Assembly (NCBI RefSeq): GCF_003334765.1
Contig: NZ_QOWT01000011.1
Length of the DNA stretch: 64,000 bases
Direction: 5' to 3' (one strand)
Source: Escherichia coli
Lineage (GTDB): Bacteria > Pseudomonadota > Gammaproteobacteria > Enterobacterales > Enterobacteriaceae
Made by a program: the position numbers and the translations under genes. This document shows, in pieces, positions 2,560 through 61,676 of the stretch. Within the stretch, counting starts at the first letter, position 1; each line of letters starts with the position of its first letter. The notes beneath the pieces were generated by a model. It ran no database searches and was not told the origin of the DNA. It saw only the letters and a program-made list of their open reading frames with translations.

Positions 2560-3492
2560 GTGAAAACACTAATAAGAAAATTCTCCCGTACGGCCATCAC
2601 GGTCGTATTAGTCATTCTGGCCTTCATCGCAATTTTTAATGCCTGGGTCTATTACACCGAATCCCCCTGGACGCGTGACGCGCGCTTTAGCGCTGACGTC
2701 GTTGCGATCGCGCCGGACGTTTCTGGACTCATTACCCAGGTGAATGTTCATGATAACCAGCTGGTGAAAAAAGGACAGATACTGTTCACCATCGACCAGC
2801 CGCGCTATCAAAAGGCGCTTGAGGAAGCGCAAGCCGATGTTGCTTATTATCAGGTACTGGCACAGGAGAAACGCCAGGAGGCCGGACGTCGTAACCGTCT
2901 CGGTGTGCAGGCGATGTCTCGCGAAGAGATCGACCAGGCCAACAACGTACTACAAACGGTTCTGCATCAGTTAGCGAAAGCGCAGGCGACCCGCGATCTG
3001 GCAAAACTGGATCTTGAACGCACGGTGATCCGCGCGCCAGCAGATGGCTGGGTGACCAACCTCAACGTCTATACCGGTGAGTTTATTACTCGAGGATCAA
3101 CGGCGGTTGCGCTGGTGAAACAGAACTCCTTCTATGTACTGGCCTATATGGAAGAAACTAAGCTGGAAGGGGTGCGTCCGGGGTATCGTGCAGAGATCAC
3201 GCCGCTTGGCAGTAACAAAGTGCTGAAAGGGACTGTTGATAGTGTTGCCGCAGGGGTCACCAACGCCAGCAGCACGCGTGACGACAAAGGGATGGCGACT
3301 ATAGACTCTAACCTTGAATGGGTGCGTCTTGCGCAACGTGTTCCGGTTCGTATTCGTCTCGACAACCAGCAAGAGAACATCTGGCCTGCGGGCACCACTG
3401 CTACAGTGGTGGTCACTGGCAAACAAGATCGCGACGAAAGCCAGGATTCGTTCTTCCGTAAAATGGCCCATCGCCTGCGTGAGTTTGGTTAA
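2560..3492 (+). CDS. aaeA: p-Hydroxybenzoic acid efflux pump subunit AaeA (membrane fusion protein)
   Basis: 310 aa ORF with a GTG start and an N-terminal transmembrane anchor; precedes aaeB. Confidence 0.9.
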
Positions 3493-37461: not shown

Positions 37462-39798
37462 ATGAAGCAAATTCGTCTGCTGGCGCAGTATTATGTTGAC
37501 CTGATGATGAAGTTAGGTCTGGTGCGCTTCTCAATGTTGCTGGCGCTGGCCCTCGTCGTTCTTGCCATTGTGGTACAAATGGCGGTAACCATGGTGCTGC
37601 ATGGTCAGGTCGAAAGCATTGATGTTATTCGTTCTATCTTCTTTGGTTTGCTGATTACGCCGTGGGCGGTCTACTTTCTATCGGTGGTCGTCGAGCAACT
37701 GGAGGAGTCACGACAACGTCTGTCACGGCTGGTGCAAAAACTGGAGGAGATGCGCGAGCGCGATTTGAGCCTCAACGTTCAGTTAAAAGATAATATTGCC
37801 CAGCTAAATCAGGAAATTGCCGTTCGTGAAAAAGCGGAAGCAGAACTGCAGGAAACCTTCGGCCAACTGAAAATTGAAATCAAAGAGCGCGAAGAGACAC
37901 AAATTCAGCTCGAGCAGCAATCCTCATTCTTACGTTCCTTCCTTGATGCTTCACCCGACCTGGTTTTTTATCGTAACGAAGATAAAGAGTTTTCCGGCTG
38001 TAACCGCGCGATGGAGCTGCTGACCGGAAAAAGCGAAAAACAACTGGTTCACCTGAAACCTGCTGATGTTTACTCACCGGAAGCCGCCGCAAAAGTCATT
38101 GAAACCGATGAAAAAGTGTTCCGTCATAATGTGTCACTGACCTATGAACAGTGGCTGGATTACCCGGATGGGCGCAAAGCCTGCTTTGAAATCCGTAAAG
38201 TGCCGTACTACGACCGCGTGGGTAAACGTCACGGTTTGATGGGCTTTGGTCGCGACATTACCGAGCGTAAGCGGTATCAGGATGCGCTTGAACGGGCCAG
38301 CCGCGACAAAACGACGTTTATCTCCACCATCAGTCACGAATTGCGTACACCGCTGAACGGTATCGTCGGTCTGAGCCGCATTCTGCTGGATACCGAACTC
38401 ACCGCCGAGCAGGAAAAATATCTCAAGACCATCCATGTTTCGGCCGTCACGCTGGGGAATATCTTTAACGATATTATCGACATGGATAAGATGGAACGGC
38501 GCAAGGTCCAGCTTGATAATCAACCGGTTGATTTCACCAGCTTCCTTGCCGATCTGGAAAATCTCTCCGCATTGCAGGCGCAACAAAAAGGATTGCGCTT
38601 TAACCTGGAGCCGACGCTGCCATTACCGCATCAGGTCATTACCGACGGGACGCGTTTACGGCAGATCCTGTGGAACCTCATCAGTAACGCCGTCAAATTC
38701 ACCCAGCAAGGCCAGGTTACCGTGCGCGTGCGCTACGATGAAGGCGATATGCTGCATTTTGAAGTGGAAGACTCTGGTATCGGCATTCCGCAGGATGAGC
38801 TGGATAAAATTTTCGCCATGTATTACCAGGTGAAAGACAGTCATGGCGGTAAACCTGCCACCGGCACCGGTATTGGTCTGGCCGTTTCTCGTCGTCTGGC
38901 GAAAAATATGGGCGGCGATATTACGGTTACCAGCGAACAGGGCAAAGGTTCAACCTTTACGTTGACGATCCACGCACCGTCGGTAGCAGAAGAGGTCGAT
39001 GATGCGTTTGATGAAGACGATATGCCTTTACCGGCGCTGAATGTGCTGCTGGTGGAAGACATTGAACTGAACGTGATTGTTGCGCGTTCTGTGCTGGAAA
39101 AATTAGGTAACAGCGTTGATGTCGCCATGACCGGCAAGGCGGCGCTGGAGATGTTTAAACCGGGCGAATACGACCTGGTGTTGCTGGATATTCAGTTGCC
39201 AGATATGACCGGGCTGGATATCTCTCGTGAACTGACGAAACGTTATCCGCGCGAGGATTTACCGCCGCTGGTGGCCTTAACCGCTAACGTGCTGAAAGAC
39301 AAACAAGAGTACCTCAATGCTGGAATGGATGATGTGCTGAGTAAGCCGCTTTCTGTTCCGGCGCTAACCGCGATGATCAAGAAATTCTGGGATACCCAGG
39401 ATGATGAGGAGAGTACGATGACGACAGAAGAGAACAGTAAATCAGAAGCATTGCTCGATATTCCCATGCTGGAACAGTATCTCGAACTTGTAGGACCGAA
39501 GCTGATCACCGACGGGTTAGCGGTGTTTGAGAAGATGATGCCGGGCTATGTCAGCGTGCTGGAGTCGAATCTGACGGCGCAGGATAAAAAAGGCATTGTT
39601 GAGGAAGGACATAAAATTAAAGGTGCGGCGGGGTCAGTGGGGTTACGCCATCTGCAACAGCTGGGTCAGCAAATTCAGTCTCCTGACCTTCCGGCCTGGG
39701 AAGATAACGTCGGTGAATGGATTGAAGAGATGAAAGAAGAGTGGCGTCACGACGTAGAAGTGCTGAAAGCGTGGGTGGCAAAAGCCACTAAAAAATGA
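37462..39798 (+). CDS. arcB: Aerobic respiration control sensor histidine kinase ArcB
   Basis: 778 aa ORF with transmembrane, PAS, HisKA (ISHELRTPLN), receiver and HPt regions. Confidence 0.95.
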   Translation: MKQIRLLAQYYVDLMMKLGLVRFSMLLALALVVLAIVVQMAVTMVLHGQVESIDVIRSIFFGLLITPWAVYFLSVVVEQLEESRQRLSRLVQKLEEMRERDLSLNVQLKDNIAQLNQEIAVREKAEAELQETFGQLKIEIKEREETQIQLEQQSSFLRSFLDASPDLVFYRNEDKEFSGCNRAMELLTGKSEKQLVHLKPADVYSPEAAAKVIETDEKVFRHNVSLTYEQWLDYPDGRKACFEIRKVPYYDRVGKRHGLMGFGRDITERKRYQDALERASRDKTTFISTISHELRTPLNGIVGLSRILLDTELTAEQEKYLKTIHVSAVTLGNIFNDIIDMDKMERRKVQLDNQPVDFTSFLADLENLSALQAQQKGLRFNLEPTLPLPHQVITDGTRLRQILWNLISNAVKFTQQGQVTVRVRYDEGDMLHFEVEDSGIGIPQDELDKIFAMYYQVKDSHGGKPATGTGIGLAVSRRLAKNMGGDITVTSEQGKGSTFTLTIHAPSVAEEVDDAFDEDDMPLPALNVLLVEDIELNVIVARSVLEKLGNSVDVAMTGKAALEMFKPGEYDLVLLDIQLPDMTGLDISRELTKRYPREDLPPLVALTANVLKDKQEYLNAGMDDVLSKPLSVPALTAMIKKFWDTQDDEESTMTTEENSKSEALLDIPMLEQYLELVGPKLITDGLAVFEKMMPGYVSVLESNLTAQDKKGIVEEGHKIKGAAGSVGLRHLQQLGQQIQSPDLPAWEDNVGEWIEEMKEEWRHDVEVLKAWVAKATKK

Positions 39799-39910
39799 CC
39801 CCGGCTAGACCGGGGTGCGCGAATACTGCGCCAACACCAGGGAAATCTTGGCTGCGCCGTAAATTATTATGATGAGTTACAAGGGCACAGCACTGTTTTT
39901 CAGGCCGCAC
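39790..39910 (-). ncRNA. arcZ: Hfq-dependent small RNA ArcZ (SraH/RyhA), convergent with arcB
   Basis: The reverse complement of 39790-39910 matches my recollection of the 121 nt ArcZ sequence (5' GUGCGGCCUGAAAAACAGUGCUG ... CCCCGGUCUAGCCGGGGUCAUUUUUU 3'); its terminator hairpin and U-tract overlap the arcB stop codon at 39796-39798. Confidence 0.85.
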
Positions 39911-40027
39911 GCAGTTAAGATAGCAAAACTTAAATGATTTGTTACATGAATCAGTTAAATGTGTGATGCGTACCATTTTTATTAAAAAAATTAATGTGTT
40001 TCAGTCAATTGCGAAAGGATGATCACA

Positions 40028-40681
40028 ATGAAGAAAATTGGCGTAATTCTGAGCGGATGCGGCGTCTATGACGGTTCTGAAATTCATGAAGCGGTGTTGA
40101 CGTTGTTAGCTATTTCACGCAGCGGTGCGCAGGCGGTCTGCTTTGCACCGGATAAGCAGCAGGTTGATGTTATCAACCATTTAACTGGCGAAGCGATGAC
40201 GGAAACGCGCAATGTGCTGATTGAAGCGGCACGAATAACGCGCGGTGAAATCCGTCCTCTGGCCCAGGCCGATGCCGCTGAACTGGATGCGTTGATTGTG
40301 CCGGGGGGGTTTGGCGCGGCGAAGAATTTAAGCAATTTTGCCAGTCTTGGTAGCGAATGCACCGTTGACCGTGAATTAAAGGCGCTGGCACAAGCGATGC
40401 ATCAGGCCGGAAAACCGCTTGGTTTTATGTGTATTGCCCCGGCGATGCTGCCGAAAATTTTCGATTTCCCGCTGCGTTTGACCATCGGTACTGATATCGA
40501 TACCGCAGAAGTGCTGGAAGAGATGGGCGCGGAGCATGTGCCGTGTCCTGTCGATGATATCGTGGTTGATGAAGACAATAAGATTGTCACCACCCCAGCA
40601 TATATGCTGGCGCAGAACATTGCAGAAGCGGCGAGCGGCATTGATAAGCTGGTTTCCCGCGTGCTGGTTCTGGCTGAATGA
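40028..40681 (+). CDS. elbB: DJ-1/PfpI-family protein ElbB (YhbL)
   Basis: 217 aa from [21 protein letters not shown]. Confidence 0.85.
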
Positions 40682-61524: not shown

Positions 61525-61642
61525 AATCTCGCGCTAACAACCTGGAATCGAGCCGTCATACTACGGCGCAACGCCCTATAAAGTAAACGATGACCCTTCG
61601 GGAACTTCAGGGTAAAATGACTATCAAAATGTGAATTGTAGC

Positions 61643-61676
61643 TGACCTGGGACTTGTACCCGGGTCGGTATTTTTT
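61643..61676 (+). terminator. Leader terminator/attenuator upstream of greA (GraL-type short leader transcript region)
   Basis: Hairpin gacctgggacttgtacccgggtc followed by a T7 run, about 95 bp upstream of the greA ATG. Confidence 0.6.

Follow-up and report, generated by a model that had tools for sequence, protein, structure and literature searches.

The biological importance of ArcZ, as already published, is that it couples the sensing of oxygen to RpoS and stress, to motility and to mutagenesis. Hfq is reported to bind the RNA, and RNase E is described as cutting it after A65, at a site following the consensus R-N|W-U-U, so that a stable 56-nt 3′ fragment would be left (PMC11331407). The single-stranded seed of this fragment, CCCUGGUGUUGGCGCA, would then pair in trans with the mRNAs of rpoS, flhD, mutS and other genes; activation of rpoS translation and repression of flhDC, mutS, tpx, sdaC and others have been ascribed to ArcZ, and ArcB/ArcA are said to repress arcZ transcription at low oxygen (PMC11331407). 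ArcZ would also lower the level of arcB mRNA by a cis-antisense overlap of the 3′ ends, and a feedback loop would result. The primary paper on this ArcZ/arcB feedback is reportedly that of Mandin and Gottesman in 2010. Destabilization of arcB mRNA by ArcZ has been described (PMC3937726) and was assigned to a 3′ region including the 6 coding nt before the stop codon (PMC4281340); arcB mRNA is said to take part in repressing ArcZ and is "speculated" to serve as its antisense RNA (PMC11331407). The literature is the source of all that is said here on expression, on binding by Hfq and processing by RNase E, on targets and on ArcA/ArcB feedback.

Two further groups of small RNAs resemble ArcZ. MicL, named together with ArcZ (PMC11331407), and other Hfq-dependent small RNAs act as a stable 3′ fragment, released by RNase E, in which the seed is followed through to a Rho-independent terminator, and ArcZ likewise. 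GadY with gadX and McaS with abgR (PMC4281340) are pairs in which the small RNA converges on the neighbouring gene and can pair with that gene's mRNA at its 3′ end or in its 3′ UTR, the same arrangement as that of ArcZ.

Identity and genomic setting of the locus

The window, that is, the whole 64,000-nt stretch of Escherichia coli DNA analysed (contig NZ_QOWT01000011.1), had been read in an earlier note as carrying ArcZ in the reverse complement of 39790-39910, and a covariance-model search with the Rfam ArcZ family had been proposed. This search, run over the whole window with Rfam 15 at gathering thresholds, was strongly positive: the ArcZ model (RF00081; gathering score, 66 bits) matched 39910..39803 on the minus strand with 120.8 bits and E = 4e-27 over model positions 1-106 of 106. 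This E value is far beyond chance, and ArcZ is thus present at this location. The model stops inside the terminator, and the last 13 nt of arcZ lie outside it. Positions 39790-39910 on the minus strand constitute the 121-nt arcZ gene, whose reverse complement reads GUGCGGCCUG...GGGGUCAUUUUUU; the 121-nt sequence starts with GUGCGGCCUGAAAAACAG and finishes with CACCCCGGUCUAGCCGGGGUCAUUUUUU. It is 100% identical to K-12 b4450, which bears out the reading of this interval as ArcZ. The parts of the locus are as follows.

39790..39910, minus strand: arcZ primary transcript, 121 nt, from the start G at 39910 to the 3′ end after U6 at 39790 (RF00081 match and b4450 identity)
39790..39845, minus strand: processed active ArcZ, the last 56 nt, beginning at U66 after GA|UUU (form described in PMC11331407)
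39843..39847, minus strand: predicted RNase E motif G-A|U-U-U, RNA positions 64-68, in the context CAAGAUUUCC, which fits RN|WUU (PMC11331407)
39827..39842, minus strand: seed CCCUGGUGUUGGCGCA, RNA positions 69-84, the highly conserved post-cleavage sequence named in PMC11331407
39817..39831, minus strand: small internal hairpin GCGC-AGUAUUC-GCGC (Rfam consensus structure and fold of the 56-nt form)
39798..39816, minus strand: Rho-independent terminator hairpin ACCCCGGU-CUA-GCCGGGGU (terminator scan)
39795..39790, minus strand: U6 run (sequence)
39790..39798, no strand assigned: 9-nt antisense overlap of arcZ and arcB, tail UCAUUUUUU against AAA AAA TGA (Lys-Lys-stop), the same in K-12
39917..39945, minus strand: putative arcZ promoter, with -35 GTAACA at 39945..39940, a 17-bp spacer and an extended -10 TGcTATCTT at 39925..39917
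37462..39798, plus strand: arcB coding sequence, 778 aa, convergent with arcZ (ORF; NCBIfam NF008302; K-12 b3210)
40028..40681, plus strand: elbB coding sequence, divergent from arcZ (NCBIfam NF008747; K-12 b3209)
39911-40027: elbB-arcZ spacer, 117 bp, containing the arcZ promoter

The neighbouring genes were assigned as well. ArcB matched the NCBIfam equivalog NF008302 over its full length with 1482.9 bits (cutoff, 838) and ElbB matched the equivalog NF008747 with 357 bits (cutoff, 180), so that the locus identity, which the earlier note had considered confirmed by ArcZ, is established from both flanks as well as from identity of the region to MG1655. Two in-frame ATG codons, at 40019 and 40028 on the plus strand, could open elbB; we favour 40028, at which the K-12 annotation places the start, and the NCBIfam alignment begins at residue 4 of the longer ORF.

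The segment 39760-40030, which adds to arcZ itself 120 nt on the upstream side and 30 nt on the downstream side, was identical to K-12 MG1655 in 271 of 271 alignment columns. In the MG1655 annotation, arcZ (b4450, "small regulatory RNA ArcZ") occupies 3350577-3350697 (121 nt) and arcB (b3210) occupies 3350689-3353025 on the opposite strand, with an overlap of 9 nt; the arcZ coordinates found here agree with this curated annotation to the base. Of 5426 complete E. coli genomes, 5417 have the 331-bp region 39700-40030, 5364 of them with at least 99% identity; in 54 of the 5417, no single piece covers 80% or more of the region.

The whole window aligns colinearly with the reverse complement of MG1655 3326487-3390486, with an identity of 99.97-99.98%; approximately 15 substitutions in 63 kb and the absence of IS5R from yhcE distinguish the two, and none of the differences falls in 39760-40030. 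A break in colinearity had been considered on the basis of 18686 mismatches obtained at first, and was rejected when BLAST traced their cause to the absence of this single 1.2-kb IS5R. In MG1655, IS5R splits yhcE, while the window has an intact, empty CTAA target site at 24932-24935, so yhcE should be uninterrupted in the window. The source strain is therefore a close relative of MG1655 and, judged by these differences, not identical to it.

The Rfam scan of the whole window gave two matches, ArcZ and the greA leader (GraL, RF01769). The latter lies at 61555-61676 on the plus strand, upstream of greA, and covers the full model with 127.5 bits against a gathering score of 60. It is a second Rfam-supported small-RNA or leader element in the window, and the earlier statement that ArcZ was the only small RNA supportable there does not hold.

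Taken together, 39790-39910 on the minus strand is almost certainly E. coli arcZ, with the mechanism described in the literature, and nothing contradicts this identification. The locus also serves as an anchor, which places the window in the arcB-elbB region of E. coli and makes it the counterpart, in reverse complement, of K-12 at approximately 3.35 Mb.

Terminator, antisense overlap and processing

The ORF of the oxygen-sensor gene arcB (37462-39798, plus strand) closes with TGA at 39796-39798, and the plus strand at 39780-39830 reads aaaagccactaaaaaaTGAccccggctagaccggggtgcgcg. A terminator scan of 39400-40300 returned one site only, on the minus strand, with the stem at 39816..39798 followed by CATTTTTTAG. 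The stem has 8 pairs, 6 of them G-C, and a CUA loop, with the tail CAUUUUUU 3′ of the stem; such a terminator with its U-tail is the 3′ module recognized by Hfq. The claim that this terminator covers the arcB TGA stood for the tail UCA and the outermost pair of the stem, but not for the 6-pair core (ccccgg/ccgggg, 39799-39815), which does not contain the stop codon: TGA is antisense to UCA, which separates the stem from the U6 run, and of the stem itself only the outermost A-U pair (39816/39798) reaches the codon. The 3′ ends of arcZ and arcB do overlap antisense, as had been described, over the 9 nt at 39790-39798, consisting of 6 coding nt and 3 stop nt; the 6 coding nt reported previously (PMC4281340) agree with this overlap. 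The arrangement had been noted as already known, and the same overlap is indeed present in the K-12 annotation.

Read on the plus strand (39799-39830), the hairpin runs into TGCGCGAATAC, which has no U-run; the scan of 39400-40300 found no terminator-like site on this strand between the arcB stop codon and elbB. The arcB gene may be co-transcribed with elbB-mtgA or be terminated by another route, and arcB transcripts may thus read through into RNA fully antisense to ArcZ.

The sequence around the cleavage site was compared with the published RNase E rule (PMC11331407), and both the GA|UUU context and the 56-nt 3′ remainder were consistent with it. In the minimum-energy fold of full-length ArcZ (-42.3 kcal/mol, z = -2.7), the seed region was paired with the 5′ half. 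The 56-nt form folded alone was predicted to have its 5′ 14 nt single-stranded, with two hairpins following. These predicted folds fit a model already in the literature, in which the seed becomes exposed on cleavage (PMC11331407).

Conservation among Enterobacterales

Related loci were collected by searching one genome per species for perfect copies of the 16-nt seed, which gave at least 120 loci. About half of the 120 seed matches listed were chance matches in unrelated phyla with no arcB nearby and were discarded. At least 56 loci had the ArcB C-terminus on the opposite strand, ending approximately 30 nt from the seed. Among the matches listed, these 56 arcB-linked loci include Escherichia, Citrobacter, Enterobacter, Kosakonia, Serratia, Yersinia, Dickeya, Pantoea, Erwinia, Photorhabdus, Xenorhabdus, Proteus, Providencia, Edwardsiella, Hafnia and others.

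The end of the U-run overlaps the arcB stop codon by 9-11 nt in 44 of the 56 loci among the matches listed, and ArcB ends in Lys-Lys-stop in 43 of these 44. The codons AAA AAA TGA/TAA, which encode Lys-Lys-stop, are the ArcZ U-tail read in reverse complement, and this suggests that the final codons of arcB may be under a constraint common to both strands. In the other 12 of the 56 loci among the matches listed, the overlap is 2 nt or less and the arcB stop codon lies at or beyond the U-tract; most of these low-overlap loci belong to Pantoea, Tatumella, Mixta and Rosenbergiella, with Hafnia, Pluralibacter, Superficieibacter and Morganella making up the rest. In the four genera named first, the stop codon is located past the tail.

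In the MAFFT alignment of the 56 loci among the matches listed, the 5′ half was variable with many indels, and aligned poorly, and the 3′ half was nearly invariant. Invariance of the seed itself follows by construction, as loci were picked by exact seed match; the seed flanks (UUU before, GCGC.C and the terminator after) were invariant or nearly so in the same 56 sequences among the matches listed. In the terminator helix, 96.9% of cells were paired across these 56 sequences among the matches listed, and changes on both sides occurred at 3 pairs, mostly from G-C to A-U, compensatory changes by which the predicted helix is supported. All 4 pairs of the GCGC hairpin were invariant in the 56 sequences among the matches listed, and this hairpin therefore gives no covariation evidence for or against pairing.

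At its gathering score of 66 bits, RF00081 recovered 8 of 20 loci having the exact seed, the terminator and convergent arcB, and missed 12, likely owing to the unconserved 5′ half. The missed loci (L007, L008, L031, L058, L059, L060, L070, L075, L089, L101, L123 and L124) include Yersinia, Photorhabdus, Dickeya, Moellerella, Arsenophonus, Tatumella, Mixta, Proteus, Edwardsiella and Hafnia. Identity, boundaries, terminator and overlap of arcZ are shown by the present analysis, and the terminator and overlap are conserved across Enterobacterales.

Promoter, alternative readings and known systems

A consensus scan for sigma-70 promoters in 39400-40300, with a threshold of 9 of 12 positions, found none. 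The arcZ promoter placed by eye has 8 of 12 consensus positions and an extended -10 TG; as this is under the threshold, it was positioned from the annotated start, with no support from the scan. In K-12, a transcription start with a 5′-triphosphate end has been reported at the equivalent of 39910 (PMC11331407), and a -10 promoter mutation abolished ArcZ on Northern blots (PMC3937726, in which the text gives no -10 hexamer sequence). Loss of the RNA in this mutant indicates that the gene has its own promoter. An IS1A copy was observed in E. coli HSP60, a urinary isolate (L125, NZ_CM137001.1), at 3227/3228, corresponding to window 39926/39927, between the extended -10 and the -35; the promoter elements of arcZ would be parted in that strain.

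The ArcA direct repeat TGTTA-N6-TGTTA, with up to 2 mismatches allowed, was absent from the arcZ promoter region (39911-40027); the same search gave 64 matches in the window against 46 expected. A single TGTTA is present at 39940-39944 on the plus strand, overlapping the putative -35. Direct ArcA binding is thus unsupported from sequence, there being no direct repeat in the promoter. Published statements on this point conflict, since a review states that ArcA-P binds the arcZ promoter (PMC11331407), whereas ArcA sites mapped by ChIP were reported to include none upstream of arcZ (PMC3798270).

As the palindromic hairpin lies directly 3′ of the arcB stop codon and hence also forms in arcB mRNA, it could be considered solely an arcB transcription terminator or 3′ UTR structure, in which case the minus strand would have no small RNA gene of its own. 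We regard this as very improbable, because the plus strand continues with TGCGCGAATAC without a U-run and the scan finds a terminator on the minus strand only, while the RF00081 match spans 106 nt, far past the hairpin. Moreover, among the loci listed, conservation across families extends over 65 nt upstream of the hairpin region and it is the arcB-distal 5′ part that varies, and in K-12 a noncoding RNA is annotated here, whose 5′-triphosphate start on the minus strand and loss in the -10 mutant were mentioned above. An ATG-started ORF of 62 codons crosses the region on the minus strand (39976..39788) and might suggest that a small protein, not a noncoding RNA, is encoded. Its start precedes the transcription start of arcZ by 66 nt, placing the start codon outside the transcript, the 62-aa product has no NCBIfam match, and the alignment of the homologues listed, in which indel lengths are not divisible by three, the 5′ half can hardly be aligned and the 3′ half is invariant at every position, has no codon pattern. 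The ORF was rejected on these three grounds, and a protein-coding role is hardly credible.

A different question is whether ArcZ, accepted as real, acts at this locus mainly as a cis-antisense RNA, with read-through arcB RNA fully complementary to it and the two RNAs destroying each other, in which case the 9-nt overlap with the coding sequence would understate the RNA overlap. The common orientation of arcB, elbB and mtgA and the lack of a plus-strand terminator between the arcB stop codon and elbB point in this direction, as do the contribution of arcB mRNA to ArcZ repression, its "speculated" action as an antisense RNA (PMC11331407) and the destabilization of arcB mRNA by ArcZ (PMC3937726, PMC4281340). 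However, such a role adds to the trans-acting one and does not replace it, and among the matches listed 12 of the 56 loci overlap by 2 nt or less and have nevertheless kept seed and terminator, whose conservation is therefore independent of the coding-sequence overlap. We consider a predominantly cis-antisense role possible but somewhat doubtful, and retain the reading of ArcZ as the trans-acting RNA described in the literature. A linked proposal, that the Lys-Lys-stop end of ArcB might be held in place by the need of ArcZ for its U-tail and that arcB read-through might provide a full-length antisense partner for ArcZ, is put forward tentatively, as an idea rather unlikely to be correct in full. 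If true, this combination of dual coding and read-through would give a physical basis for the reported mutual repression of arcB and ArcZ; both ideas extend points already stated or speculated in the literature.

In comparison with MicL-type RNAs, ArcZ differs in having its own intergenic promoter and in its cis-antisense relation to the gene next to it, at the 3′ end. GadY is reported to stabilize gadX mRNA and McaS is without a reported effect on abgR, whereas ArcZ destabilizes arcB mRNA (PMC4281340); unlike in those pairs, the major documented targets of ArcZ lie in trans, and rpoS, flhD and mutS are encoded outside the window. Compared with ArcZ of K-12 (SraH/RyhA; RF00081; b4450), the locus showed no difference in anything tested. 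The arcZ gene described here is already known in every respect examined, K-12-like and ordinary, with the same sequence, length, promoter region, terminator, 9-nt arcB overlap and position between arcB and elbB.
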